Position numbers and translations under genes: made by a program. From Thiothrix sp. (lineage in GTDB: Bacteria > Pseudomonadota > Gammaproteobacteria > Poriferisulfidales > GCA-002705445), in contig JAYQIN010000002.1 of the NCBI GenBank assembly GCA_038141665.1, forward strand, positions 765,189 to 829,188: a DNA stretch of 64,000 nt, given 5' to 3'. The notes beneath the pieces are model-generated. The model worked only from the letters and a program-made list of their open reading frames with translations, was not told the DNA's origin and ran no database searches. This document shows positions 22,276 through 46,096 of the stretch, in pieces (the first letter of the stretch is position 1; each line of letters opens with the position of its first letter).

Positions 22276-22352
22276 TGGTGGCCCCGGTAGGACTCGAACC
22301 TACGACAAATGGATTATGAGTCCACTGCTCTAACCAACTGAGCTACAGGGCC
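22276..22352 (-). tRNA. tRNA with CAT anticodon (elongator Met or, more likely, lysidine-modified Ile2)
   Basis: Reverse complement GGCCCTGTAGCTCAGTTGGTTAGAGCAGTGGACTCATAATCCATTTGTCGTAGGTTCGAGTCCTACCGGGGCCACCA folds as a 77-nt cloverleaf (7-bp acceptor, D and T arms, CTCATAA anticodon loop, encoded CCA). The GGCCC.../...GGGGCC acceptor stem resembles E. coli ileX. Confidence 0.9.
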
Positions 22353-29183: not shown

Positions 29184-31022
29184 TTATTCTAAATCTAGAA
29201 AACTTTTTAATTGTTCTGAACGACTTGGATGTCTTAGCTTTCTTAAAGCTTTAGCCTCTATTTGTCTAATTCTTTCTCTAGTGACATCAAATTGTTTTCC
29301 TACTTCTTCTAAAGTATGGTCTGTATTCATATCAATTCCAAACCTCATTCTCAGTACTTTTGCTTCTCTTGGCGTTAGTGAGCCAAGTATGCTTCTTGTA
29401 GCCTCACCAAGACTTTCATTTGCCGCTGATTCCATAGGAGTCAATATATTTGCGTCTTCAATAAAATCACCTAAATGAGAATCTTCATCATCACCTATAG
29501 GTGTTTCCATAGAAATAGGCTCTTTTGCAATTTTAAGAACTTTTCTTATTTTGTCTTCAGGCATTGCCATTTTTAATGAAAGCTCTTCTGGTGTAGGTTC
29601 TTTCCCATTCTCTTGTGTCATTTGTCGAGAGATTCTATTTAATTTATTAATTGTTTCAATCATATGAACCGGAATCCTAATAGTTCTTGCCTGATCGGCT
29701 ATAGACCTTGTAATCGCCTGCCTAATCCACCATGTTGCATAAGTTGAAAATTTGTAACCTCTTCTATATTCAAATTTATCAACAGCTTTCATAAGACCTA
29801 TATTTCCTTCTTGAATAAGATCTAAAAATTGTAATCCTCGATTTGTATATTTTTTTGCTATTGATATTACTAATCTTAAATTCGCCTCAATCATCTCTTT
29901 TTTTGCACGTTTTGATTTTGCTTCACCAATAGACATTTTTCTATTAATTTCTTTAATTTCTGAAACTTTAAGACTTGTTAACTCTTCAATTTTCAAAAGT
30001 TTTTTCTGAATTTTTTTAATCTCATCTTTATTTTTTTTGAGTTTTACGGAATATTTTGGCTTTCCCTTTAGTCTATTCTGAACCCAATCTAGATTAGCAC
30101 TATTATCTGCAAAGCTTTTTATAAATTCTCTTCTTGGCATTCCAGATGAAATTGCAATTTTAGATATTTGCTTTTCATAATCCCTAATTTTGCTAACAAC
30201 TAATTTTAAATCTTCTTTGAGTTCTGTTAGTAAAACGGGAACTATTCTAAATCTCATGAAATAATCAGCTGTTTTTTCTCTGGCTTTCAAAAGCTTTTTA
30301 GGATCTTTTTTTACTGCTGGCTGATTAGTTTTTTTAAAAAGTTTGATTAAGTCATCAAAATGTTTTTTTGCTTCTTCTGGATCAATGCCAGTATCAACTT
30401 CAACTTCTTCTTCATCATCATCATCATCGCTTTTTAAAGCGTGATCTTCAATCACATCATTATCAGCTTCAGGATCAATAAAACCATTTAATAAATCACT
30501 AAGTTTTAATCTTTCAATTTCTTCATCCTCATCTTCATCTTCTTCTGGCTGATTCATAACTAATGCGTAAGAGGTTAATAGCTTCTCAATAGTATTTGGG
30601 TAAAAAGCCAACGCATGTGTAACTTGGTTCAATCCTTCCTCAATTCTTTTAGCAATGCTTATCTCACCTTCTCTGTTAAGCAGGTTAACTGTCCCCATTT
30701 CTCTCATATACATCCTAACAGGATCAGTTGTTCTGCCAAATTCCTGGTCAACAGTAACTTATGCCTGTGCTGCCTCTTCTGCTGCATCTTCGTCAGTAGA
30801 TTGATCATCGTCATTTAAGCTTAATGTATCCTCATCGGGAGGCAATTCCTGAACCACTATCCCCATTTCTGTGATCATATTTATAATATCTTCAATTTGA
30901 TCTGAGTCTACGATGCCTTCAGGAAGATGGTCGTTAACTTCAGCATAGGTAAGGAAACCTTGCTCTTTTCCTTTGGAAATTAGCTCTTTTATTTTGGTTT
31001 GATGATTCTCGTTTATAGCCAT
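29184..31022 (-). CDS. rpoD: RNA polymerase sigma-70 RpoD, interrupted by an in-frame TAA (30759-30761) between region 1.1 and region 1.2
   Basis: ORF 30759-31022 encodes region 1.1 ([35 protein letters not shown]...) ending ...[11 protein letters not shown]. The same frame continues [24 protein letters not shown]..., then regions 2-4 ([49 protein letters not shown]). Confidence 0.9.
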
Positions 31023-31096
31023 TTATATAAAAGTATTTTCTTGAAGAATATATATGTTTTTGGGAGAGAGATTATAACATAAAATATTAATATAAC

Positions 31097-32824
31097 TTAA
31101 TAATTCTTTGATTTTGCTTCTATTTCTCTAATTTCCTCTTGCACAGAAGAATATAGCTTTAGATTCGAAGGATCAATGTCATTTAATTTGGTTTTTAAAA
31201 GATTTCTGATTGTTAAGCAAATACATGCATTAAATTCTTTCTCAGGAAAGTCAAAATTGGTAAGCGTGACTTGGCTGATTTTTTCTAATGCCACATAGGA
31301 GCTCTTATCAGATCTAAAGTTCTCAAGTATGCCACCTAGCTTAATATCCCGATTATTTTTTATTAAATCTACTATAGACTTAAGCAAAATTATCCCCTGG
31401 TTATCTTGGATGCGATTATCATTTATAAGATCTTCGTCAATATCTAAATTAGGGTTATGCATTAAAATTAATATTGCTTTTTGGAGAGGGGAATGTGTTT
31501 TATATTTTTTACTCTGAGAAGTATTAGAAAACTCATTATTAATATCAGGAGATTTATTATTTGTATATTTAGCACCTATTTTTTCTTTCAAAAATTCGTA
31601 AATAATTTCTTTTAATATTTTTGCATTCATATTTTTCAATAGTAAATCTATATTCTGTAAATATTGTGTTTTACCGGCAGCGCTTGTTAAATCAAATTCT
31701 TTAGAAAAATTTTTAAAAATGAATTCCTCAATACTAATTTTTTTATTAACATTTTCATCCCAAAGTTTTTTTCCACCTTTTTCTATTATGCTATCTGGAT
31801 CAAAACTATCTGGAAGGAAAACAAAGCTTATTGCATCACCATCTTTTATAACAGGTATAATATTTTCAACGCCCTTCCACGCAGCTTTTTGTCCTGCTTT
31901 GTCACCATCAAAACAGAATATAATCTCTCTAGTATATTTAAAGCATTGAATTAAATTTTCTTTTGTGACTGCAGTTCCAAGTGTGGCTACACAATTTTTT
32001 ACTCCCGCTTGATGCAGTTTAATGACATCCATATATCCTTCTACAATATAAATAAAATCTTTTGAATTTTTTTCTTTTTTTGCTTGATGGAGATTATATA
32101 AAACCTTTTTTTTGCTAAATAATTTAGTTTCTGGTGAGTTCATATATTTTGCAATTGGTTTATTTTTATCCTCTTTTAATATTCTTCCGCCAAATGCAAT
32201 TGTATGCCCTGTTTGGTCGTGTATTGGGAACATAATTCGATCTCTGAACTTATCGTAAGAGTTATTATTTTTCTTAACTATTAGACCAGCATCTAATAAA
32301 TTGGATTCAGTATACCTACCCTTAAGCGACTCACTAAGTGATTGAAAATCGTTTTTTGCATATCCTATGTCAAATATTTTTGCAGTCTCACCGGTAATAC
32401 TTCTTTCTTTTAAATAAGAAATTGCTTTTTCCGAATTTTTCAATTGGCTCTGATACAATTTTTTTGCATCATTCAATGTGTTTTCAAGAATTTTCTTTTC
32501 TTCAAATAATTTGTTTGCTTCCTTACTTCTTGGTATTTCCATTCCTAAGGAATTAGCAATAGTTTCGATTGCTTCAGGATAAGTTTTATTTGTATGATCC
32601 ATAACAAAGCCGATAACATTTCCGTGTGCACCACAGCCAAAGCAATGAAAAAATTTTTTACTCTCACTTACACTAAACGAAGATGTTTTTTCGTTATGAA
32701 AAGGACATCTTGCCCAATAGTCATTGCCTTTTTTTTCTAGCTTTACATAATTTCCAATTATATCTACGATGTTTGCTTTCTCTATTAAGCTATCTATGAA
32801 GTCTTTTGGGATATTTTGGGCCAT
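31097..32824 (-). CDS. dnaG: DNA primase
   Basis: 575 aa, zinc finger CPFHNEKTSSF...CFGCG, TOPRIM EGYMDV. Confidence 0.93.
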   Translation of the reverse strand: MAQNIPKDFIDSLIEKANIVDIIGNYVKLEKKGNDYWARCPFHNEKTSSFSVSESKKFFHCFGCGAHGNVIGFVMDHTNKTYPEAIETIANSLGMEIPRSKEANKLFEEKKILENTLNDAKKLYQSQLKNSEKAISYLKERSITGETAKIFDIGYAKNDFQSLSESLKGRYTESNLLDAGLIVKKNNNSYDKFRDRIMFPIHDQTGHTIAFGGRILKEDKNKPIAKYMNSPETKLFSKKKVLYNLHQAKKEKNSKDFIYIVEGYMDVIKLHQAGVKNCVATLGTAVTKENLIQCFKYTREIIFCFDGDKAGQKAAWKGVENIIPVIKDGDAISFVFLPDSFDPDSIIEKGGKKLWDENVNKKISIEEFIFKNFSKEFDLTSAAGKTQYLQNIDLLLKNMNAKILKEIIYEFLKEKIGAKYTNNKSPDINNEFSNTSQSKKYKTHSPLQKAILILMHNPNLDIDEDLINDNRIQDNQGIILLKSIVDLIKNNRDIKLGGILENFRSDKSSYVALEKISQVTLTNFDFPEKEFNACICLTIRNLLKTKLNDIDPSNLKLYSSVQEEIREIEAKSKNY

Positions 32825-32826
32825 GC

Positions 32827-35800
32827 TTATGCAGCAACACTATCTTTATTGAATAAATCTTCAATTTTGATGGCTTTAGGTTTGACTAATAAAAATTTAT
32901 TTATATAGCTATCAAAATTATCAAGTATAAATCTGCCCCATTCGCTATTTGTAAGATTCACATAATCTTCTATAGATTTTCTTAGGAAGGTAACTTGATG
33001 AAGATTCTCTTCTTTATTAATTTTTAAAGTTTCCACAAGCTCTGTATTATATTTATCTTTAAAGGTGTTGTTTTCGTCTAAAACAATTGCAAAACCACCT
33101 GACATTCCTGCTCCAAAGTTAACACCTGTTTCTCCAAGAACTATGACAGCACCATTGGTCATATATTCACATCCATGATCTCCAACCCCCTCAACTATTG
33201 CTGTGGCTCCTGAATTTCTTACAGCAAATCTTTCTCCTGCAATTCCAGCAGCATAAAGTTTTCCACCAGTTGCACCATACATGCATGTATTACCTATGAT
33301 AACTGAGTTCTTTGTCTCATAAGTTACATCTTTTGGGGGATATACAACAATCTGTCCCGCAGCCATTCCTTTGCCGACGTAGTCATTAGCATCCCCTTCT
33401 AAAGTTAAATTCAAGCCACCAGCATTCCAAACTCCAAAACTTTGTCCCGCTGTACCTTTAAAATGGATATTTATTGGGTTCTTAGACATTCCATAATTTC
33501 CGTGAAGGCTAGCTATGTAGCCTGATATGCTAGCTCCAACTGATCTATCAGTATTTTTAATAGAATAATTAAAGTTTCCACCAGATTTACTTTGAATTGC
33601 ATCTTTAGTCTCTTCATTAATTTTCTTAGATAGTTCTGCTTTGTCCCAAGGAATATTGCTTTCTAATTCACATGTATGAGAGATATTTTCATCAACATTG
33701 GCATCTGAAATAATTGGATCAATGATTAAATTTTTTAATTTACCATTTTCAAATTTTTTAACTTCAAGAATGTTTGTTTTTCCAATAATATCTGACAACT
33801 TTTTATATCCTAGATTTGCTAATAAGATTCTAGTTTCTTCAGCTATAAATCTAAAATAATTCATCACCATTTCATCTTTACCAATAAAATGATATTTTCT
33901 TAAAACTTGATTTTGAGTCGCAACACCAGTGGCGCAATTATTCAAATGACAAATTCTTAAATATTTGCAGCCCATTGCGATCATTGGTCCTGTTCCGAAA
34001 CCAAAACTTTCAGCTCCTAAAATTGCTGCTTTAACAACATCAATACCAGTTTTTAATCCACCATCTGCTTGTAATCTTACATTTCTTCTTAAGTTATTGG
34101 CTCTTAGTGTTTGGTGAGTTTCTGATAGACCCATTTCCCAAGGTCCGCCAGCATATTTAATACTGGACAGCGGACTCGCTGCAGTTCCTCCATCATAACC
34201 GGATATTGTAATAAAATCTGCATAAGCTTTTGCTACCCCAGCAGCTATAGTTCCAACCCCTGCTTCTGCAACTAATTTAACAGATACAAAAGCTTTTGGA
34301 TTGACCTGTTTTAGGTCAAAAATTAATTGCGCCAAATCTTCTATCGAATATATATCATGATGTGGAGGCGGTGAAATTAGTGTTATGCCAGGATTTGCAT
34401 ATCTTAAAGTAGCAATTAGCTTGTCAACTTTGTCACCGGGAAGCTGTCCTCCTTCACCTGGTTTTGCGCCTTGGGCAATTTTTATTTGAATAACTTCTGC
34501 ATTAACTAAGTAATGAGGAGTGACTCCAAATCTTCCTGATGCTACTTGTTTTATTTTTGAGTTTTTATCTGTGTTAAATCTTTTTTGATCTTCTCCACCC
34601 TCGCCTGAATTAGATCTTCCTCCCATTTTGTTCATAGCTTGAGCTAAAGTTTCGTGAGCATCAGGAGATAGAGCTCCTAAAGACATCCCGGCAGAGTCGA
34701 ATCTTAAAAGTATATTTTCTATTGGCTCGACATCATCTAGTGGAATTGGTTTTCTTGAGCTATTGAAGTCCAGCATGTCTCTAATCACCATTTTCTCTCT
34801 AGAGTGAACTATGTCGCTATATTTTTTATAATCTTCGTAGTCACCACTTTTTACAGCATCTTGAAGTGTTTTCACGACATCAGGATTATAGGCATGAAAC
34901 TCTTCACCATGAACGTATTTTAAAAGACCGCCTTGTTTAATATTCTTTCTTTCACTCCAAGTATTTTTGGCAAGTTTAATTTGATCAATTTGTAAATCAT
35001 TAAATGTTGTTCCTGATAATCTATTAGTAGTATCACAAAAACATAAATCAACTACTTCTTGATTTAATCCAACACATTCAAATAACTGTGATCCTCTATA
35101 ACTTGAAATAGTGGATATTCCCATCTTTGATAGAATTTTATAAAGGCCTTTGTTTATGCCCTGTCTATAATTTCTAGTTGCTTTGAAAAATTCTGAATTG
35201 TCATCAGATTTTTCAATAATCATACTATTTAAGGATTGATAGGCCAAATATGGATAAATTGCAGTTGCACCATATCCAATCAATGTGGCGCAATGATGAG
35301 AGTCTCGAGCTGTCGCTGTTTCTACAATAATGTTTACACTTGTTCTGAGACCACTTTTAATTAAAGCATGATGAACAGCGCCGGTAGCAAGGAGAGCATG
35401 AATTGGTAACTTTCCTTTTTTAATATTTTTATCACTTAAAATAATAAATACTTTATTATTTTTTGCGGCATCAATTGCTTTTTTTGTCAAATTTGTTATT
35501 GCTTTTTCAAGTTCTATTTTTTCATCAAAGTTTAGATCCAGAATTACAAATGTGAATTTCTTATTCTTTAGTTCCTGTAATTGTTTGAATTTTCTATATG
35601 ATAATATAGGAGATTCAATAGTCAGTCTGTGTGCATGTTTCGAGCCCTCCTCAAAGACGTTTAAATCTGGTCCGAGGTAAGTTTCTAAAGACATAACATT
35701 ACTTTCCCTTATTGGGTCTATAGGTGGATTTGTTACTTGAGCAAACTGTTGTCTGAAATAATCATATATTGACCTAATTTCATTTGATAAAACAGGAAAA

Positions 35801-37299
35801 GGAGTATCGTCACCCATAGAGCCAATAGCTTCCTGACTAAGATTTGAAAGTGGTTTCAATATTTGATCTTTCTCTTCATAAGTAACATTAAACATTTTTT
35901 CATATTGCTTAATTTTAGAATCATTAAAAAATTCTACTTCAGGGAATTTGTCGGGAATAATTTTTCGCATTGATTCTGCCCCAGTGTCCATCCATTCTTT
36001 GTAGGGGCATCTTTTTTTAAGAATATTGTCAATGTCATGTGAATATAAAATTTCTCCTTCTTCAGTATCTACAGCAATAATCTGACCAGGGCCAAGCTTT
36101 CCCTTTTCAATAATATCTCTTTCATCGTATTCATAGACTCCAATTTCAGAAGCTACAGTTATATGCCTATCATTAGTTATTACATACCTTGCAGGCCTTA
36201 AGCCGTTTCTATCAGTTACACAAGCTGCAAATCTCCCATCAGTTAAAACTATACCTGCTGGCCCATCCCATGACTCCATATGCTTTGCATTATATTCATA
36301 GAACGCTTTAAGATCTGAATCACTTTCAGGAATACTTTTCCATGCTGGCGGAATTAGAAGTTTAATAGCTTTAAATAAATTAATTCCTCCAACAACTAAA
36401 ACTTCAAGCATGTTATCGAGACTTTTTGAGTCTGACCCATTCATAGAAACAAGAGGTTTCAGATCAGCTAATTCTGGTATTTTAGAAGTTTTAAAAATGC
36501 TGGATCTTGCCTGAGACCAATTTCTATTGGCTCTTATAGTATTAATTTCTCCATTATGCGCTAACATTCTGAATGGCTGTGCAAGGCTCCATTGAGGCGT
36601 TGTATTTGTTGAAAATCTTTGATGAAAAACACATAGAGAAGTTTCAAGTTTTTTATTAGATAGGTCTAAATAAAATTTAGCAAGATGTTTTGGCATTATC
36701 ATGCCCTTATACAATATAACTTTAGAAGATAAACTTGTGATATAAAAAATATCATCATCTGTTTTAGAAATTAATATCTCTATTTTTCTTCTTATAATAA
36801 GTAATTTAGATTCAATATCTCTACTATTAATTTTCTCTGAGGGATTAATGAATGCTTGGCTAATATAAGGTAGAGTTTTTAATGCGTCCTCACCACAAAT
36901 CTTTTCATCGGTTGGAACATCTCTCCAGCCAGCTAAAATAAAATCATGTTCTTTTACCACTTCTTCAACAATTTTCATTGAAGATTTTCTTTTCTTTATA
37001 TCAGTATTTAGAAAAAACATTCCAATAGCAAAATTTTTTGCAACATTAATTTTTTGTTCATTTGCTATAGACCTGAAGAAGAATTCTGGAATTTTAAACA
37101 ATATTCCACAACCATCTCCAGAGGTTCCATCAGCTCCGACGGCGCCTCTATGAGCAAGCCTTTCGAGAGCAGTGATAGCTGTATCAATTAACCAGTGACT
37201 TGGTTTATCATCAATGTTTGAAATTAAACCAAATCCACAGCTGTCTTTTTCAAAGCTTTTATCATATAGACCAGTAATTTCTTTAGTTTTATCTACCAT
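32827..37299 (-). CDS. gltB: glutamate synthase (NADPH) large subunit
   Basis: 1490 aa, N-terminal Ntn Cys (DSCGFG), FMN and 3Fe-4S domains, C-terminal GXGXG beta-helix domain. Confidence 0.95.
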   Translation of the reverse strand: MVDKTKEITGLYDKSFEKDSCGFGLISNIDDKPSHWLIDTAITALERLAHRGAVGADGTSGDGCGILFKIPEFFFRSIANEQKINVAKNFAIGMFFLNTDIKKRKSSMKIVEEVVKEHDFILAGWRDVPTDEKICGEDALKTLPYISQAFINPSEKINSRDIESKLLIIRRKIEILISKTDDDIFYITSLSSKVILYKGMIMPKHLAKFYLDLSNKKLETSLCVFHQRFSTNTTPQWSLAQPFRMLAHNGEINTIRANRNWSQARSSIFKTSKIPELADLKPLVSMNGSDSKSLDNMLEVLVVGGINLFKAIKLLIPPAWKSIPESDSDLKAFYEYNAKHMESWDGPAGIVLTDGRFAACVTDRNGLRPARYVITNDRHITVASEIGVYEYDERDIIEKGKLGPGQIIAVDTEEGEILYSHDIDNILKKRCPYKEWMDTGAESMRKIIPDKFPEVEFFNDSKIKQYEKMFNVTYEEKDQILKPLSNLSQEAIGSMGDDTPFPVLSNEIRSIYDYFRQQFAQVTNPPIDPIRESNVMSLETYLGPDLNVFEEGSKHAHRLTIESPILSYRKFKQLQELKNKKFTFVILDLNFDEKIELEKAITNLTKKAIDAAKNNKVFIILSDKNIKKGKLPIHALLATGAVHHALIKSGLRTSVNIIVETATARDSHHCATLIGYGATAIYPYLAYQSLNSMIIEKSDDNSEFFKATRNYRQGINKGLYKILSKMGISTISSYRGSQLFECVGLNQEVVDLCFCDTTNRLSGTTFNDLQIDQIKLAKNTWSERKNIKQGGLLKYVHGEEFHAYNPDVVKTLQDAVKSGDYEDYKKYSDIVHSREKMVIRDMLDFNSSRKPIPLDDVEPIENILLRFDSAGMSLGALSPDAHETLAQAMNKMGGRSNSGEGGEDQKRFNTDKNSKIKQVASGRFGVTPHYLVNAEVIQIKIAQGAKPGEGGQLPGDKVDKLIATLRYANPGITLISPPPHHDIYSIEDLAQLIFDLKQVNPKAFVSVKLVAEAGVGTIAAGVAKAYADFITISGYDGGTAASPLSSIKYAGGPWEMGLSETHQTLRANNLRRNVRLQADGGLKTGIDVVKAAILGAESFGFGTGPMIAMGCKYLRICHLNNCATGVATQNQVLRKYHFIGKDEMVMNYFRFIAEETRILLANLGYKKLSDIIGKTNILEVKKFENGKLKNLIIDPIISDANVDENISHTCELESNIPWDKAELSKKINEETKDAIQSKSGGNFNYSIKNTDRSVGASISGYIASLHGNYGMSKNPINIHFKGTAGQSFGVWNAGGLNLTLEGDANDYVGKGMAAGQIVVYPPKDVTYETKNSVIIGNTCMYGATGGKLYAAGIAGERFAVRNSGATAIVEGVGDHGCEYMTNGAVIVLGETGVNFGAGMSGGFAIVLDENNTFKDKYNTELVETLKINKEENLHQVTFLRKSIEDYVNLTNSEWGRFILDNFDSYINKFLLVKPKAIKIEDLFNKDSVAA

Positions 37300-37328
37300 A
37301 TCTTAATAAGTCCAGTTAAATGAGCTTA

Positions 37329-37420
37329 CCAGAGTTTGATGATGTCTCACCAAACTCTAGATTTAAAGTTTGGTGCGTTCCTTCGGCTTTATGCCTACTT
37401 CCGTCCTACAAGGATGAACG
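37329..37420 (-). promoter_or_regulatory. glutamine-I (glnA RNA motif)-like riboswitch aptamer plus expression platform in the gltB leader
   Basis: The minus-strand RNA is CGUUCAUCCUUGUAGGACGGAAGUAGGCAUAAAGCCGAAGGAACGCACC (37420 to 37372). It has P1 CGUUC/GAACG, two hairpins and the conserved GGACGGAAGUAGG and GAAGGAACGC strings. It is followed by three mutually exclusive pairing segments. A paralog lies upstream of gltD. Confidence 0.7.
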
Positions 37421-37429
37421 TACATTTAT

Positions 37430-37458
37430 ATTATATGGCTAGGAGCTTATTCGTTCAA
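37430..37458 (-). promoter_or_regulatory. sigma-70 promoter of gltB leader
   Basis: Minus strand TTGAAC (37458-37453), 17-nt spacer, TATAAT (37435-37430), 9 nt before the aptamer P1. Confidence 0.65.
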
Positions 37459-37506
37459 TACATATTAGATATTAATATGTTGAATAAAATCTATATGTTA
37501 AAACAT

Positions 37507-38649
37507 CTAATTAGTCAGCTTTTTATGTTCTTGTTGTGCAAATCTATCTGTCATACCTGCAATATAGTCACATATAACTCTTTCTTTAAAGCCAGAATTA
37601 ATTTTGTTTAGATTGTAGTTATAGAAATCTTTTGGCAGTAAAGTTATGTCGTTGCTATAGGCTGAAAAAAGATCTTTAATGATCGTATTAGCCTCTTCTG
37701 TCATTTTTACAACATCTGGATGTTTATAGAGATTTGCATAAAGAAACCTTTTTAATTTTATGTTCATTTCTTTAACTTCCTTTGAAAAACTTACAATCAA
37801 TTCACTGTGATTTCTAACGTCTTCATATTTTTTTATTAAGCCATTTTCAATATTTGTTTTTGTATTATTTATTAAATCAGTTACTAGTAAATTTATAATT
37901 AATCTAACTGTTTCATTTACAATTTTAGAACCAGAGAGTTTAGGGAATTTGTTTAAAACTAATCTCATTTGATTATAAAATAAAGGTATATCTTCAAGCT
38001 GTTCTATGAAAATTTTTTTTGCCTTTATTCCATCTTGTATATCATGATTGTTGTATGCTATTTCATCACATACATTTGTTAGTTGAGCTTCAAGAGAGGC
38101 TTGTTTTTTTTTAAGAAATCTTTTTCCGACATCGCCAATCTTCTGCGCTCTAGTAAGAGAGCACTTTTTAAGTAAGCCTTCTCTAGTTTCAAAGCATAGA
38201 TTTAAGCCAGGAAAATTAGCGTATCTATTTTCCAGTTTATCAATAATCCTTAAAGATTGAATATTATGTTCGAACCCACCATAATCTTTCATACAAATAT
38301 TTAGAATATCTTGTCCTGCATGACCAAACGGAGTATGACCAAGATCGTGTGCTAATGATATGGCTTCTGTTAAATCTTCATTAATTCTTAAAGCTCTAGA
38401 AGCAGCTCTAGCTATTTGAGCAACCTCTATTGTATGAGTTAATCTTGTCCTATACATGTCTCCTTCATGATTAACAAAAACTTGAGTTTTATATTCTAAC
38501 CTTCTAAATGCAGTTGAATGTATGATTCTTTCTCGGTCCCTCTGGAATTCTGATCTGTATTTGGGATTTTCTTCCGGATACTTTCTTCCAATAGTATCAC
38601 TTGATTTTAGTGCATATGGAGCTAGGTTATATTCAGAATCATTTGACAT
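37507..38649 (-). CDS. dgt: dGTPase-like triphosphohydrolase (HD domain)
   Basis: 380 aa, FQRDRERIIHSTAFRRLEYKTQV, HD motif LAHDLGHTPFGH. Confidence 0.88.
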   Translation of the reverse strand: MSNDSEYNLAPYALKSSDTIGRKYPEENPKYRSEFQRDRERIIHSTAFRRLEYKTQVFVNHEGDMYRTRLTHTIEVAQIARAASRALRINEDLTEAISLAHDLGHTPFGHAGQDILNICMKDYGGFEHNIQSLRIIDKLENRYANFPGLNLCFETREGLLKKCSLTRAQKIGDVGKRFLKKKQASLEAQLTNVCDEIAYNNHDIQDGIKAKKIFIEQLEDIPLFYNQMRLVLNKFPKLSGSKIVNETVRLIINLLVTDLINNTKTNIENGLIKKYEDVRNHSELIVSFSKEVKEMNIKLKRFLYANLYKHPDVVKMTEEANTIIKDLFSAYSNDITLLPKDFYNYNLNKINSGFKERVICDYIAGMTDRFAQQEHKKLTN

Positions 38650-39709
38650 GGTCTTTTAATGATTTAATGATTACGCTTTTGTTAATTTTATCTGTGATAT
38701 AAGCTGAGCCAATTTTATTTGGAAGGACATAAACCATTTTATTATTTTTAACTTTTTTATCTAATAGCATGATTTTGAATAACTTTTCCACATTTGTATT
38801 TTTTGGTAATTCTGTCGGGAGGTTAAACATTTTTAAAAGTAATTTTATTTGATTGTATTCTAATTGGCTCATTGTATTGTTATGTATCGCGACTGATGAA
38901 GCAATAAGAAATCCGCATGCGATGGCTTCTCCATGAAGCCATTTTCCATATCCTAAATAGTTTTCAATCGCATGTCCAAAAGTATGCCCGAGGTTTAATA
39001 GGGCTCTAACATTTTTTTCTTTCTCGTCTTGAGCAACTATTTTTGCTTTAATTTCGCAAGATTTTTTAATAATTTTGATTAGGCTCTCAGAATCCTGGTT
39101 TTTAATTTTCTCAGTATTTTTTACAATCCAATTGAAGAAACCTTTATCTTTTATGATTCCGTATTTTATAACTTCTGACATGCCCGCATTAAATTGTCTT
39201 TTAGATAATGTTTTCAAAACTTCAGTGTCAATAATAACAGCAATGGGTTGATGAAAAGCACCGATCATATTTTTTCCTAAAGGGTGGTTAATGCCGGTTT
39301 TACCACCCACAGAGGAGTCTACCATTGATAATAATGTTGTCGGTATTTGAATAAAATCAATTCCTCTTTGATATGTGGCTGCAGCATAACCGGTCATGTC
39401 GCCAATTACACCACCACCAAATGCCACAAGACATGCGTCTCTAGAATATTTATTTTTTAATAAATGGCCATATATTTTTGAAATACTTTCTTGATTTTTA
39501 TATTTTTCGCCATCGCTTATTAAAATCTGATTTTTTTTAAATAAGGTACTTTTTATTTTAGATATATGTAGTCCTTTTATCTTTCTATTGCTAATCAAGG
39601 CAAAATCTTTTTGTTTAAAATTTTTGTATATACTTTTATTTGATAAAATATTTTTCCCAATAAAAATTGGATAAGATCTTTTTCCTAGCTTAACTATTAT
39701 TTTTTTCAT
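38639..39709 (-). CDS. aroB: 3-dehydroquinate synthase
   Basis: 356 aa, GGGVIGDMTGYAAATYQRGI, LNLGHTFGHAIE, HGEAIA motifs. Confidence 0.93.
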   Translation of the reverse strand: MKKIIVKLGKRSYPIFIGKNILSNKSIYKNFKQKDFALISNRKIKGLHISKIKSTLFKKNQILISDGEKYKNQESISKIYGHLLKNKYSRDACLVAFGGGVIGDMTGYAAATYQRGIDFIQIPTTLLSMVDSSVGGKTGINHPLGKNMIGAFHQPIAVIIDTEVLKTLSKRQFNAGMSEVIKYGIIKDKGFFNWIVKNTEKIKNQDSESLIKIIKKSCEIKAKIVAQDEKEKNVRALLNLGHTFGHAIENYLGYGKWLHGEAIACGFLIASSVAIHNNTMSQLEYNQIKLLLKMFNLPTELPKNTNVEKLFKIMLLDKKVKNNKMVYVLPNKIGSAYITDKINKSVIIKSLKDHVK

Positions 39710-40217
39710 AATCTTTAATAATAATTTTTGATATTTTTACTGTATCATAATTATCAGTACTTATTTTAATATTGGATATATTTTCGTAATATTTTTCTCT
39801 TTGATCAATTAAATCAGCAATAATCTTTTTTGAATTATAGCCTTTAATTAAGGGTCTATTTTTGTCTTGCTCTGTTCTATATACAAGTTCTTCTATACTG
39901 GCAGTGAGATATACTATATAACCTAATTTTTTAATAATTTCTCTATTTTCTTCTGAAATTATTATCCCACCGCCTGTACTAATGACAGTGCTTTCCAACG
40001 AAGATATTTCTCTTAAAATATTACTTTCTCTTTTTCTAAATCCAACTTCTCCTTCATGCTCAAATATTGTTGGGATATCTACACCAGTTTTTTCCTCTAT
40101 AAGATGATCAGTATCTATGAAATTAAATTTCATCATTTTAGATAGTTTTTTTCCGATTGAGGTCTTACCTGAGCCCATAGGGCCAATCAAAATGATATTG
40201 TTTTTATGTTTAGACAA
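39690..40217 (-). CDS. aroK: shikimate kinase
   Basis: 175 aa, P-loop GPMGSGKTSIGK, STGGG motif; aroK-aroB operon. Confidence 0.92.
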   Translation of the reverse strand: MSKHKNNIILIGPMGSGKTSIGKKLSKMMKFNFIDTDHLIEEKTGVDIPTIFEHEGEVGFRKRESNILREISSLESTVISTGGGIIISEENREIIKKLGYIVYLTASIEELVYRTEQDKNRPLIKGYNSKKIIADLIDQREKYYENISNIKISTDNYDTVKISKIIIKDYEKNNS

Positions 40218-40266
40218 GATAAATTTTGTGTTTATAGTATTATATAGATATTAACAAGAATTTTTA

Positions 40267-42738
40267 ATGCTACCAACAAGTATGAGTATATTTTTTAAGA
40301 AAGCAAAAAAACCACTTTACATCGTTATTGGCCTAGTAATTATTGTTCCTTTAGCCTCGTATATTTATTTATCTAGAGGCCTTCCTACCGTAGAAGAAAT
40401 ACAAGATATGAGGATGCAAATTCCAATGCGTGTATATACTCAGGATAAAAAGTTAATTGCAGTTTATGGGGAAAAGAAAAGAATCCCAGTGACTTTTGAG
40501 GAAATACCTGAAAATTTAAAAAATGCTTTTATTGCTGCAGAAGATAACAGGTTTTATAGTCATAGCGGAGTAGATTATTTTGGCTTGTTGAGGGCTTTAA
40601 AAAGTTTTATTTCAACTGGTAAGGTTACACAGGGTGGAAGCACAATCACAATGCAGGTCGCTAGAAATTTCTACTTAAGTAGAGAAAAAAAAATCAGCAG
40701 AAAGTTAAGAGAGATTTTGCTTGCTTATAAAATGGAGAGGAATTTAAGCAAAGAAAGAATATTTGAGTTATATATGAATAAAATATACTTGGGCCATAGA
40801 GCTTATGGTGTTGCTGCCGCCGCACAAGTTTATTATGGGAAGAGATTATCTGAATTAACTTTACCCCAAGCAGCGATGATTGCTGGGCTTCCAAAAGCAC
40901 CTTCAAATTATAATCCAATAGCTAACGAAAAGAGAGCACTTCAAAGAAGGGATTATGTTTTGCGTAGAATGTCTGAAAATAATTTCATCTCTCAAAGCCA
41001 ATACGTCGATGCTTATATTTCTCCTGTTACAGCAAGATTGAGAAGTGCGAATATAGAGTTAAAAGCACCTTATGTATCAGAGATGGCAAGAGTTCAAATG
41101 GAAGAGAGATTTGGAAAGGAAGCCTACACTCTAGGTTATGATGTGTTCACAACAATTAATAGTAAACTTCAAGAAGCCGCTAAAAAATCTCTCAAAAGAC
41201 ATGTGGAAAATTATGATAAACGCCATGGATATAGAGGAGCAGAAGCAAAAATAGGTTATAACCAACTATTGAACTCTAATTTCGAATACGATCTTGAAAT
41301 TTCGATGATCAACATCAATAAATATTTGAAAAATTTCTATGATATAAATAAAAATATTCCGGCTGTGGTACTAAATGTTGATGATAAAAAAATAAAAGTA
41401 TATACAAAACATAATCAATTATTAGATATCAACTTGAATGAAATAATTATAAAAAATCAATACTATGATGTTAACTATCAGAGAAAAATTAAAAATTTTA
41501 ATAAGATTTTAACGATTGGAGATGTAGTTAGAGTTAAGGAAGTAAGAAAAAAATGGCGGCTTTCACAAATTCCGAACGTAAATGGAGCAATAGTTTCTAT
41601 CGATTCAAATAGCGGTGCAATAAATGCTTTGTCAGGAGGCTATGATTATAGAATAAGTAAATTTAATAGAGTAACTCAAGCTAAACGACAACCTGGATCA
41701 AGCTTTAAACCTTTTATATACTCTGCAGCGTTAAACAAGGGTTATACGCCAGCTTCTATAATAAACGATGCTCCTAAAGTTTTTAAAGAAAATACTGTTA
41801 GCGGAGCTTGGAGACCAAAAAACTACGGTGGTAAATTCCATGGGCCTACAAGATTGAGGTATGGTTTGGCTAAATCAAAAAATATGATTTCTATAAGGTT
41901 GCTTGATAATATTGGCATTAAATACACCTTAGGCTTTGCTGAGAAATTTGGTATCTCAACTGATAATTTACCAAAAGATTTGACCTTAGCTTTAGGGAGT
42001 GGAGAAATCACACCTTTAGAATTATCTGAATCATATGCTTATTTTGCAAATGGTGGTCACGGAATAAAACCATATCTTATAGAGCAAGTAAGAACACGAG
42101 ATAATGATATCGTTTATGTTGAAAATCCAGTTAGAGTTTGCAGTAATCCTTGCGATTACGTGAGCATGGATACCTTGCAATTTCCTTCTGCAGAATCTGT
42201 AGAAGAAATTTCTGAACTTAGAAATAAGGCTGGCTTGCCAAGATTTTCTACTCAAACAATTGACCCAAGAAATATTTATCAAATGGTAAGCATGCTAAAA
42301 GATGTTGTAAAATATGGTACTGCTAAAAAAGCAAAAGTGCTTAAACGCTCAGACATTGCAGGCAAAACAGGAACCACAAATGATCAAAAAGATGCGTGGT
42401 TTAGTGGTTTTAATAGAGACGTTGTGACTGTTACTTTTCTTGGTTTCGATGACCACTCATCTTTAGGAAAAAAAGAATTTGGAAGTACTGCAGCTTTACC
42501 AATGTGGATAGATTATATGAAAGTAGCTTTAAAAAATTTACCGATTTCAAATATGGATGAGCCAGAAGGTTTAGTTAGTGCAAAAATAGATAGTAAGAAT
42601 GGTTTACTAGCATCACCAACCTCTAAAAGTTCAATAATTGAGGTATTTAGAAAAGAGAATGTGCCAAAGACTTTTAGTAAAGAAAATAAGTCTAAAGAAA
42701 AAGATCAAAAAGAAATTGAGATTGAAAAAATTTTTTAG
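40267..42738 (+). CDS. mrcA: bifunctional penicillin-binding protein 1A
   Basis: 823 aa, glycosyltransferase 51 motifs (EDNRFYSH, GGSTITMQ), transpeptidase SSFKP, SKN, KTGTT. Confidence 0.92.
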   Translation: MLPTSMSIFFKKAKKPLYIVIGLVIIVPLASYIYLSRGLPTVEEIQDMRMQIPMRVYTQDKKLIAVYGEKKRIPVTFEEIPENLKNAFIAAEDNRFYSHSGVDYFGLLRALKSFISTGKVTQGGSTITMQVARNFYLSREKKISRKLREILLAYKMERNLSKERIFELYMNKIYLGHRAYGVAAAAQVYYGKRLSELTLPQAAMIAGLPKAPSNYNPIANEKRALQRRDYVLRRMSENNFISQSQYVDAYISPVTARLRSANIELKAPYVSEMARVQMEERFGKEAYTLGYDVFTTINSKLQEAAKKSLKRHVENYDKRHGYRGAEAKIGYNQLLNSNFEYDLEISMININKYLKNFYDINKNIPAVVLNVDDKKIKVYTKHNQLLDINLNEIIIKNQYYDVNYQRKIKNFNKILTIGDVVRVKEVRKKWRLSQIPNVNGAIVSIDSNSGAINALSGGYDYRISKFNRVTQAKRQPGSSFKPFIYSAALNKGYTPASIINDAPKVFKENTVSGAWRPKNYGGKFHGPTRLRYGLAKSKNMISIRLLDNIGIKYTLGFAEKFGISTDNLPKDLTLALGSGEITPLELSESYAYFANGGHGIKPYLIEQVRTRDNDIVYVENPVRVCSNPCDYVSMDTLQFPSAESVEEISELRNKAGLPRFSTQTIDPRNIYQMVSMLKDVVKYGTAKKAKVLKRSDIAGKTGTTNDQKDAWFSGFNRDVVTVTFLGFDDHSSLGKKEFGSTAALPMWIDYMKVALKNLPISNMDEPEGLVSAKIDSKNGLLASPTSKSSIIEVFRKENVPKTFSKENKSKEKDQKEIEIEKIF

Positions 42739-43799
42739 TCTCTATGGTACTTAATACTATATTCTTTGATATGTTTAATGAGAATGCCTAGATTTTCTGG
42801 ATCAACGAACTGGTCTATACCATGGCCCAAATTAAAAATGTGTTTATGTCCAAATCCATAGTTATCGATTATTTCTGATGCAGCATCTTTTATAGATTGC
42901 TCTGTACCATGAAGAGCGCAAGGGTCAAGATTTCCTTGTAAGCAAATATTTTCCCCAACAATTTTTCTTGCACTTGCGATGTCTACTGTCCAGTCTAACC
43001 CAATTCCATCGCAGCCGGATTTAGATATTTCATTTAACCAACCACCCCCACCTTTTGTAAATAATATGACGGGTATATTTTTTGTTATTTTATTTTTTTT
43101 TAAATTACTTATTATTTCTTTCATTGGGTTAAGAGAAAAATGAATATAATTATTTGTATTTAATAATCCACCCCAAGAGTCAAAAATCATTAAAATATTT
43201 GCTCCAGCCTTAGCTTGCATAATTAAATATTCTGAAATAGATTTTACAAGTTTTTTTATTAACGTATTAAGCATTTCTGAATCGTTAAAAACAATTGATC
43301 TTACTTTTCGAAATTCTTTTGTTGCTGAGCCTTCAATCATATAAGTTGATAAAGTCCATGGACTTCCTGAAAATCCAATCAAAGGTATTTCGTTATTTAA
43401 TTTTTCTTTTGTATGTTTAATTGCATCAGCCACATACTCTAGAGAATTTATATTTTCATCGGAAAGAGATGACACATCTTTAATATTATTTAGTGGATTA
43501 TCAAAATATGGACCGCGATTATCTTCAAACTTTAACTCAAGACCCATGGCATCAGGAATTGTTAAAATATCTGAAAAAATTATAGCTGCATCCAAATCAA
43601 ATCTTCTAATTGGTTGAACTGTTACTTCAGAAGCTAGTTCTGGTGTTTTACAGAGATTTAAAAAGCTTCCAGCCTCAGCTCTTGTTTTTTTATATTCTGG
43701 CAAATATCTGCCTGCTTGTCGCATTATCCAAACGGGTGTTTTATCTACAGGATTGCCTGCCAAGACATCTAAAATTCTTCTATTTTTAATTGAATTCAT
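42735..43799 (-). CDS. hemE: uroporphyrinogen decarboxylase
   Basis: 354 aa, PVWIMRQAGRYLPEY signature. Confidence 0.93.
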   Translation of the reverse strand: MNSIKNRRILDVLAGNPVDKTPVWIMRQAGRYLPEYKKTRAEAGSFLNLCKTPELASEVTVQPIRRFDLDAAIIFSDILTIPDAMGLELKFEDNRGPYFDNPLNNIKDVSSLSDENINSLEYVADAIKHTKEKLNNEIPLIGFSGSPWTLSTYMIEGSATKEFRKVRSIVFNDSEMLNTLIKKLVKSISEYLIMQAKAGANILMIFDSWGGLLNTNNYIHFSLNPMKEIISNLKKNKITKNIPVILFTKGGGGWLNEISKSGCDGIGLDWTVDIASARKIVGENICLQGNLDPCALHGTEQSIKDAASEIIDNYGFGHKHIFNLGHGIDQFVDPENLGILIKHIKEYSIKYHRD

Positions 43800-43801
43800 A
43801 T

Positions 43802-45214
<1,413 letters not shown>

Positions 45215-45224
45215 TTAAAACTTA

Positions 45225-45316
45225 CTAGAGTTTGATGTTATCTCACCAAACTCTAGATAAAAGTTTGGTGCGTTCCTTCAGCTTTTTGCCTACTTCCGTC
45301 CTTTAAAGGATGAACG
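45225..45316 (-). promoter_or_regulatory. second glutamine-I (glnA motif)-like riboswitch, in the gltD leader
   Basis: Minus-strand RNA CGUUCAUCCUUUAAAGGACGGAAGUAGGCAAAAAGCUGAAGGAACGCACC (45316 to 45267), then CACCAAACU / CUAGAGUUUGGUG / CAAACUCUAG segments. Differences from the gltB copy fall in loops or keep pairing. Confidence 0.7.
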
Positions 45317-45336
45317 TGTATTCTATTACAATATTA

Positions 45337-45365
45337 ATTATAGGACTAACAGGTTAAGCATTCAA
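45337..45365 (-). promoter_or_regulatory. sigma-70 promoter of gltD leader
   Basis: Minus strand TTGAAT (45365-45360), 17-nt spacer, TATAAT (45342-45337), about 20 nt before the aptamer. Confidence 0.65.
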
Positions 45366-45410
45366 TAGAAAGGGCGGATAAATACATTGAAAATAACTTA
45401 TATAGTTTTT

Positions 45411-45878
45411 TTAAGATAGCTTTTCTTTCACAAACTTACTGGCAAAGCCCATATCAGCGCGATTATTTGAACGTTTTTTGAGCTCACCCATTACTTGGCC
45501 TATTTGGCTCATCTCTTGAATGGATTTTTCTTTAATAATATCTTTAATCATTTGTTTCACTTCATCTTGACTCATATCTTCTGGCAGATATTCTTTAAAG
45601 ACAGATAACTCGAATTCTTCTTGCTCTGCAAGATCAGTTCTATTTGCTTCTTTATAGTGTGTGAGAGATTCTTTACTTTTTTTGGAGAGTTTTTTTAAAA
45701 TTTCAAAAATAATTTCATCAGTAAGATTTTCTCTTGTCTCAACTTCTTTGTCTAAAATTGCTGCAAGAATTAATTTAACAGCAGCCAATCTTTTTTTATC
45801 ACCGCTTTTCATCGAAGCTTTCATATCTTCGGTGATTTTATTTTTAAGAGGTGAATTAGTTTCTTGAGGGTTAGACAT
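45411..45878 (-). CDS. yqeY: GatB/YqeY domain protein
   Basis: 155 aa, LKNKITEDMKASMKSGDKKRL...; typical position downstream of rpsU. Confidence 0.8.
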   Translation of the reverse strand: MSNPQETNSPLKNKITEDMKASMKSGDKKRLAAVKLILAAILDKEVETRENLTDEIIFEILKKLSKKSKESLTHYKEANRTDLAEQEEFELSVFKEYLPEDMSQDEVKQMIKDIIKEKSIQEMSQIGQVMGELKKRSNNRADMGFASKFVKEKLS

Positions 45879-46096
45879 TAATAAAGTTTAATTCTTCTTC
45901 CAGTTGCAGTTCTATTAGTTCTTTTGTGAACTCTTTTTACAGCTGCAGCTGCTTTTCTTTTTCTAACAGAGGTTGGTTTCTCGTAAAATTCCCTTTTTCT
46001 AATTTCAGTTAAAACTCCAGCTTTTTCACATGCACGTCTAAATCTTCTGATGGCAATGTCAAATGGCTCGTTTTCTTTTACTTTAATACTTGGCAT
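45878..46096 (-). CDS. rpsU: 30S ribosomal protein S21
   Basis: 72 aa, [29 protein letters not shown]. Confidence 0.95.

Follow-up and report, generated by a model that had tools for sequence, protein, structure and literature searches.

The leader of gltD in the DNA analysed here is a genuine second copy of a known glutamine riboswitch and an ordinary member of Rfam family RF01739. The other copy precedes gltB, the gene for the large subunit of the same enzyme, glutamate synthase. Each of the two genes appears to be equipped with its own module, in which a sigma-70 promoter would be followed by a type 1 glutamine riboswitch aptamer and then by an expression platform of four segments. In silico, both leaders belong to the aptamer family, they have two mutually exclusive and nearly iso-energetic folds, the platform is complementary to the translation start in a specific register, and the module is conserved. 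We lean towards the view that the module acts as a glutamine-activated translational ON switch, for which we infer the binding of glutamine, the sign of the response and the translational output alike.

The analysed stretch of DNA (the window) comprises 64 kb, is AT-rich (31.6% GC) and originates from an uncultured marine gammaproteobacterium. Its relevant features are listed in Table 1. Coordinates and profile identities confirm the statement of an earlier note on this DNA that gltD and gltB are 6.5 kb apart. The region between them contains hemE, a gene for PBP1A (on the other strand), aroK, aroB and a dGTPase gene. Because the gaps between gltD and hemE and between gltB and dnaG are so short (Table 1), hemE and possibly also dnaG-rpoD may be co-transcribed with the riboswitch-controlled genes. 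A short upstream ORF (AUGGACUUAGUAAGAGUAUGA), which overlaps the gltD start, was dropped as a candidate, being conserved neither in the gltB copy nor in the homologs.

Table 1. Genes and leader elements of the gltD and gltB loci (window coordinates).
Feature	Coordinates	Strand	Remarks
gltD, glutamate synthase small subunit (gamma-type), 463 aa	45193..43802	(-)	TIGR01318, 717 bits (cut-off 483)
hemE	43799..42735	(-)	2 nt after gltD; TIGR01464, 419 bits
gltB, glutamate synthase large subunit, 1490 aa	37299..32827	(-)	NF008730, 2433 bits
dnaG	32824..31097	(-)	2 nt after gltB, followed by rpoD; TIGR01391
rpoD	29184-31022	(-)	NF004208
gltD leader promoter, TTGAAT-17-TATAAT	45337..45365	(-)	promoter scan; predicted transcription start about 12 nt before P1
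gltD leader, glutamine riboswitch aptamer (type 1, glnA RNA motif)	45267..45318	(-)	RF01739, 62.6 bits, E 1.8e-11
gltD segment 1, CACCAAACUUU	45260..45270	(-)	adjoins P1 on its 3' side; paired with segment 2 in the MFE fold and the RNAalifold consensus
gltD segment 2, CUAGAGUUUGGUG	45244..45256	(-)	common partner of segments 1 and 3; core GUUUGGUGA invariant in 35 leaders
gltD segment 3, CAUCAAACUCUAG	45225..45237	(-)	13-bp hairpin with segment 2, or predicted pairing with the start-codon region
gltD linker hairpin, UAAGU (45224-45220) / ACUUA (45206-45202)	45202..45224	(-)	predicted in both states; weak
gltD segment 4, AGAGU-AUG-A	45190..45198	(-)	start codon (45193-45191) with the preceding 5 nt; complement of segment 3
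gltB leader promoter, TTGAAC-17-TATAAT	37430..37458	(-)	promoter scan; -10 box ends 9 nt before P1
gltB leader, paralogous glutamine riboswitch aptamer	37372..37422	(-)	RF01739, 60.6 bits, E 6.7e-11
gltB platform	37329..37375	(-)	segment 1 37375-37365, segment 2 37360-37348, segment 3 37341-37329

Homologous leaders were collected from relatives and by a metagenome scan with a pattern made up of the aptamer 3' end, segment 1 and segment 2, which returned 72 loci. Metagenome loci and relatives together provided 35 distinct leaders, with 20 located before gltB, 15 before gltD and none before any other gene. The 544 kb of related metagenome loci contained no copies with another platform.

Both aptamers match the RF01739 model untruncated (positions 1-53 of 53) and are well above its gathering threshold of 35 bits. 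This bears out the proposal of the earlier note that the gltD leader is a second glutamine-riboswitch copy. The 50-nt sequence quoted there is present at 45316..45267 (-), inside the Rfam match (45318..45267). Each aptamer is in a 5' UTR position, with a promoter-like site ahead of it and the gltD or gltB start behind it. In the gltD copy, stem P1 is formed by 45316-45312 with 45275-45271, P2 covers 45309-45300 and P3 45290-45280. The strands ACGGAAGUA and GAAGGAACGCA of the three-stem junction (P1/P2/P3) are complete in both copies and invariant in the 35 homologous leaders. P1 is also invariant in these, and the closing pair of P3 varies (GU in 21, GC in 7 and AU in 5 leaders). C45270 (gltD) and C37375 (gltB) occupy the conserved GCA position of the model, 3' of P1. 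Aligned to the published description of the G23-C60 pair (PMC6212724), they would correspond to C60 and thus to the ligand-dependent "linchpin" C. From their sequence, both aptamers are predicted to bind glutamine. When all Rfam 15 families were scanned (E <= 1), RF01739 was the only family returned at the two loci. Neither locus matched the glutamine-II riboswitch (Downstream-peptide motif, RF01704), and the 64-kb window did not contain a third RF01739 copy.

The likeness of the two loci begins at the -35 box and fades out a few bases after the platform hairpin, the flanks being unrelated. Identity is 0.72 in the promoter, 0.88 in the aptamer and at least 0.79 in the platform. It is 0.55 in the 150 nt upstream (shuffles: 0.56) and 0.63 in the first 150 nt of the coding sequence (shuffles: 0.56). 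Uniform similarity into the flanking DNA, which the earlier note had named as the mark of a simple duplication, was thus not found: the likeness is bounded and drops to shuffle level upstream. As it is confined to promoter, aptamer and platform, we are dealing with a bounded module, not with a segmental duplication.

Between the two copies, the reported differences in the hairpin loops are real (P2 loop: UUUAAA vs UUGUA; P3 loop: AAAAA vs AUAAA). The differences said to keep base pairs are also real and do keep them, but they are one-sided (G-C/G-U and A-U/G-U), not double compensatory. The P3 closing pair is G-U in gltD and G-C in gltB, while one pair of the platform stem is U-A in gltD (CUCUAG) and U-G in gltB (CUCUGG). 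The motif said to be shared just before each ATG fits gltD only (GGACUUAGUAAGAGUAUG); the sequence in gltB (GGACUUAUUAAGAUAUG) is one base shorter. That selection acts on the RNA and that chance is not at work, as had been argued, is backed by the E-values (1.8e-11 and 6.7e-11), by the local nature of the likeness and by the retention of the gltD copy with its promoter in 15 distinct leaders. The comparison of just two copies is, however, a weak argument for selection on structure, because paralogous leaders exchange sequence (see below).

The TTGAAT-17-TATAAT promoter that had been placed ahead of the gltD copy was found at 45365..45337 (-). A promoter module (TATTGAATG...TATAAT) occurs in 35/35 homologous leaders. 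Its -10 box is 17-20 nt away from P1 in gltD-type leaders and 6-11 nt in gltB-type leaders. Because the module is found at a fixed distance in all 35 leaders, it supports independent predicted transcription starts just upstream of each aptamer. In both leader types, conservation extends past the hexamers (TATTGAATG ... TAGYCC-TATAAT; 45337-45369 and 37430-37462 on the (-) strand of the window, and all 35 homologous leaders). This region could harbor a regulator binding site besides the promoter.

The expression platform had been described as consisting of three segments. These are present, but a fourth one, the start-codon region, had been missed, so that the platform has four segments. In the alignment of the 35 leaders, segments 1, 2 and 3 are nearly invariant and the linkers are variable. 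Helix 1:2 has 9-11 bp, with 100% of the alignment cells paired, a count that is biased because the metagenome search pattern fixed 6 of its 9 pairs. Helix 2:3 has 13 bp, with 94.9% of the cells paired. The RNAalifold consensus of the 35 leaders, which was predicted independently, consists of the aptamer and helix 1:2. Double-sided covariation was not found in helices 1:2 or 2:3 across the 35 leaders; only one-sided changes occur, and shuffles match the observed values. With helices that are nearly invariant, this test is uninformative, and the predicted platform helices are based on conservation and pairing potential, not on covariation. The fold z-scores of the complete leaders are -3.08 (gltD) and -2.48 (gltB). 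For the linker hairpin, 75% of the cells are paired and double changes are seen at three pairs, in a part of the 35-leader alignment that is of poor quality.

The fourth segment involves the translation start. Both window leaders have an MFE fold that contains helix 1:2 and in which the translation start is paired with segment 3. In gltD, UCA.AACUCU pairs with AGAGU.A.UGA (45198..45190), which corresponds to the region from -5 to +4. This duplex has an energy of -10.7 kcal/mol, which is in the top 1% of the 2425 ATG contexts in the window. The corresponding value for gltB (-6.2 kcal/mol) ranks only in the top 25% of these contexts. Across the homologs, the median percentile of the duplex is 0.105 for gltD-type and 0.33 for gltB-type leaders. 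When the register is fixed on the AUG, a mean of 7.1 out of 9 positions pair in the 35 leaders, compared to 2.7-4.0 when it is slid by 1-6 nt. The register holds despite a linker between hairpin and AUG that varies from 20 to 37 nt. One pair of duplex 3:4 alternates between C-G (18 leaders) and U-A (6 leaders), with a Fisher p of 0.012 that ignores phylogeny. If helix 1:2 is enforced, the region from -12 to -1 is less accessible than in the 2:3 state in 33/35 leaders, and the AUG is less accessible in 25/35. In these models, sequestration of the start codon is reasonably supported for gltD and less so for gltB, given the ranks of the two duplexes among the ATG contexts.

The two folds are finely balanced. 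For gltD, the fold with helix 1:2 has -34.5 kcal/mol and the one with helix 2:3 has -33.3 kcal/mol (a difference of 1.2); for gltB, the values are -33.2 and -32.8 kcal/mol (a difference of 0.4). If P1 is enforced, 27/35 leaders adopt the 1:2 fold as their MFE structure. It is sufficient to forbid pairing of the first 1-4 nt of segment 1 to flip these leaders to the 2:3 fold. The predicted fold flips even if only the C that follows P1 is blocked, which is the first base of segment 1 and comes after GAACG. The other 8/35 leaders prefer the 2:3 fold with nothing blocked.

This leads to the following proposal. In the absence of glutamine, segment 1 would pair with segment 2. Segment 3, being left free, would pair with segment 4, that is with the 5 nt before the AUG, its UG and the next base, and this would block translation initiation. 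When glutamine is present, the aptamer would capture the C after P1 in a long-range G-C pair, thus destabilizing the helix that is attached to P1. Segment 2 would then move to segment 3, forming the 13-bp hairpin. The start region would be freed and GltD translated, with GltB being produced likewise under the control of its own copy. Glutamine, which is the substrate of the enzyme, would thus turn on both subunits together, resulting in negative feedback on the glutamine pool.

For type 1 glutamine riboswitches in general, the mode of action was stated to be unclear (PMC6212724). Crystal and NMR work summarized in the same paper showed that the long-range G23-C60 pair melts the short helix attached to P1, and it was postulated that this melting frees the ribosome binding site. 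Glutamine was found to enhance expression in vivo through this aptamer class (PMC6212724), and genes located behind these motifs go down upon nitrogen depletion (PMC2864571). The ON direction is favoured because of these data (activation, melting of the helix and the decrease upon nitrogen depletion) and because the tail of phage copies pairs with a Shine-Dalgarno sequence (see below). A point against the ON relay is that, if it just keeps the sign of the simple phage platform, there is no obvious necessity for having a relay.

The same aptamer and the same folds could also operate with opposite polarity. Glutamine would then stabilize P1 and a helix 1:2 stacked on it, the start codon would stay paired, and the translational OFF switch would allow GS-GOGAT to be made only when nitrogen is scarce. 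Helix 1:2 begins at the base right after P1 and could indeed stack on it, and the small energy difference between the two folds would permit either direction. Nitrogen limitation induces gltBD in some bacteria, as such a switch would have it. Against this polarity stands that the sole in vivo data for the aptamer class are of activation by glutamine, and that the reported transition melts the P1-attached helix (PMC6212724). In addition, to repress a glutamine-consuming enzyme when glutamine is high would presumably cause positive feedback on the pool. We thus consider an OFF switch to be unlikely, even though it is the most serious competitor of the ON switch.

Control might also be transcriptional, with the 2:3 hairpin being an intrinsic terminator and helix 1:2 the anti-terminator, and with the binding or the absence of glutamine deciding between them. 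In the terminator scan, the gltD hairpin was classed as terminator-like (13 pairs, tail UAAGUUUUAA), and several gltD-type leaders have U-rich tails. The U run does not adjoin the stem, however, being separated from it by UAAG in the gltD copy. At least 5 U within the 8 nt after the stem are found in only 7/35 leaders, despite the genome having a GC content of just 31.6%; gltB copies have 1-4 U in these 8 nt (the window gltB copy has 2). Termination at the 2:3 hairpin would also oppose the release of the start codon that is predicted for the very same state. As hemE and dnaG-rpoD follow at a distance of 2 nt, essential genes would presumably become glutamine-dependent. Because the U tract is not conserved, we rejected the reading of 2:3 as an intrinsic terminator at the level of the family, and transcriptional control of this type seems improbable.

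Four known systems are related to the gltD and gltB leaders in one way or another. The first is the type 1 glutamine riboswitch as found, e.g., in the 5' UTR of Synechocystis gifB (PMC6212724; PMC2864571). The aptamer is the same, with a full-length match, the conserved junction bases and the GCA 3' of P1. Its location is likewise the 5' UTR of a gene for nitrogen assimilation, the published associations including glutamate synthase, and the sign is probably the same (glutamine activates). The host is, however, a gammaproteobacterium and not a cyanobacterium, and the targets are gltB and gltD instead of GS-inactivating factors. Also, the leaders have a four-segment relay, whereas the tail in Synechocystis is short and pairs directly with the ribosome binding site, and there are two copies for the two subunits of one enzyme.

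The second system is found on marine phage contigs (GCACCUAACUUUAAAAAGGAGGGUG-AUG). These riboswitches have the same aptamer and a nearly identical tail and linker; one viral contig (L198) has CACCAAACUUUAAC, which is exactly the tail and linker of the gammaproteobacterial leaders. In the phage copies, the tail (CACC(U)/GCACCU) pairs with a GGUG-containing segment, the Shine-Dalgarno sequence GGAGGGUG, which precedes the AUG of a small ORF by a few nt. In the gammaproteobacterial leaders, by contrast, the partner is segment 2, which is no ribosome binding site, and the signal would be passed on via segment 3 to a start codon that is 45-65 nt downstream. By analogy, the gammaproteobacterial platform looks like the phage design in which segment 2 has replaced the Shine-Dalgarno partner and two more segments reach out to the start codon. 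Glutamine aptamers with the tail GCACCUAACUUUAAAAAGGAGGGUG were seen on at least 120 viral contigs (L087-L206). They directly precede small basic ORFs, which are of a few recurring types (MNRFDHLHK..., MTYRPFSWK..., MNFKWDLK..., MDRHTRVLE...).

The third system, the gltD motif (SRC-18-1) from Selenomonadales/Veillonellales (PMC8632094), is also a structured leader behind a promoter directly upstream of gltD. Its hairpin was proposed to occlude the ribosome binding site, with glutamine as the proposed ligand. The RNA architecture is unrelated, however, and the phylum is different, the published taxa being Negativicutes without any overlap. The fourth is the trp leader, an attenuator with 1:2, 2:3 and 3:4 pairings. 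It shares four consecutive segments with the middle pairing excluding both outer ones. Unlike in the trp leader, the trigger here is a ligand-binding aptamer, not a translating ribosome, and the output helix is proposed to hide a start codon and is not a terminator.

With respect to distribution, marine metagenome contigs as long as 1.1 Mb encode the exact GltD protein and have their genes arranged as in the window. Among species-representative genomes, close relatives are confined to uncultured marine Gammaproteobacteria, with gltD being 89-94% identical; the next match has 73% identity and the rest 62-69%. The riboswitch is present in three close relatives and was not found in the genome with 73% identity (L010). 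In one related lineage (L008, with a gltD identity of 89%), only gltB is preceded by the riboswitch, and gltD follows a YqeY-like gene after a plain AT-rich spacer of 65 nt (L008:8940-9003). When relatives were searched with the gltB protein, there was a gap between 85-88% and <= 60% identity. The two outgroup gammaproteobacterial gltB loci analyzed (<= 60% identity) contain neither a riboswitch nor an intermediate platform. These loci (L279, L280) have a higher GC content and unrelated leaders of 110-220 nt (L279:2570-2710; L280:2770-3020), which have no Rfam match; the synteny aroK-aroB-(HD/SPOR protein)-gltB is kept. As the outgroup loci retain the synteny but are devoid of the riboswitch, the element appears to be a lineage-specific acquisition.

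The leaders of one genome have lineage-specific substitutions in common. In L007, both leaders have CAAAUUC and the loop GAAAUUAUC, their within-genome identity being 0.958, compared to a mean of about 0.83 to their orthologs. A chimera was found in the gltD leader L237:7726-7857 (-), where a gltB-type aptamer interior (P2 loop UUGUA, P3 GGCAUAAAGCC) is embedded in gltD-type flanks and platform. This strain has the same GltD N-terminus as the window (30 residues compared). Judged from its sequence, the chimera is a gene-conversion tract between paralogous leaders within the species to which the window belongs. The shared substitutions in L007 and the chimera thus indicate that the copies are homogenized by gene conversion, which weakens any argument that is derived from a comparison of the two copies alone.

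Such exchange raises the question of whether the gltD copy was just passively left behind by duplication of the gltB leader, or by gene conversion from it, and has no regulatory role of its own. That leaders recombine, that paralogs within a genome share substitutions and that L008 lacks a riboswitch before gltD would all fit, yet the 15 distinct gltD-type leaders keep all invariant aptamer positions, their own promoter spacing and a gltD-specific complement to the start region, and the Rfam score of the gltD copy exceeds that of the gltB copy, which makes a passive copy highly improbable.

That the motif is associated with glutamate synthase genes has been on record since 2010 (PMC2864571) and was stated again in 2021 (PMC8632094). 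The aptamer class, the ligand and the link to glutamate synthase having been published already, the basic finding is an annotation, not a discovery. Phage copies of the motif are known from the genomes of pelagiphages and OM43 phages (PMC9004378). The RF01739 motif was also reported from SAR86 MAGs (PMC12379486), and SAR86 was described to have gltB1/B2/B3-type genes (PMC11582366). In the open-access literature that was searched, neither the relay platform nor a pair of copies on separate gltB and gltD genes was found to be described.

It is tempting to speculate that we are dealing with an undescribed architecture, a bistable relay that carries the movement of the linchpin over about 75 nt to a start codon. 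One streamlined marine gammaproteobacterial lineage might have acquired it along with the promoter, after which it would have been duplicated onto gltB and gltD and kept uniform by gene conversion. The marine phage pool is a possible origin because the phage copies have the same tail and linker. We propose this scenario tentatively, as a possibility that is somewhat doubtful when taken as a whole. If it is true, the lineage coordinates two subunits by an RNA sensor. With one sensor module per gene, two unlinked genes for the same enzyme would be co-regulated stoichiometrically without an operon. The hosts of glutamine riboswitches from marine metagenomes were said to be unknown in 2018 (PMC6212724). 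These riboswitches would now get a host, an uncultured AT-rich gammaproteobacterial clade, the closest outgroups of which do not have the element. The proposed switching module is more elaborate than what has been described so far for the glutamine riboswitch. With its two finely balanced states, such a relay makes a testable prediction of how the aptamer transmits ligand binding, and the leaders are short (about 130 nt).

A few additional observations were made in the window. The classic operon rpsU-dnaG-rpoD is split (29184-46096, (-)). The order is rpsU (46096..45878), a YqeY-like gene, riboswitch-gltD-hemE, the PBP1A gene (other strand), aroK-aroB-dGTPase, riboswitch-gltB, dnaG and rpoD. 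The rpoD gene itself is split into two in-frame ORFs of 87 aa and 509 aa, which cover positions 20-103 and 122-630 of the RpoD profile. The ORFs are separated by a single in-frame TAA (30761..30759). The stop codon is probably due to a sequencing or assembly error (TTA to TAA), or it is a population variant in an essential gene. A tRNA gene is encoded at 22279-22352 (-) (74.7 bits). Its anticodon loop CUCAUAA results in the anticodon CAU (Met or Ile2). On the opposite strand, this tRNA gives rise to a spurious sub-threshold match to "Plastid-ycf2".
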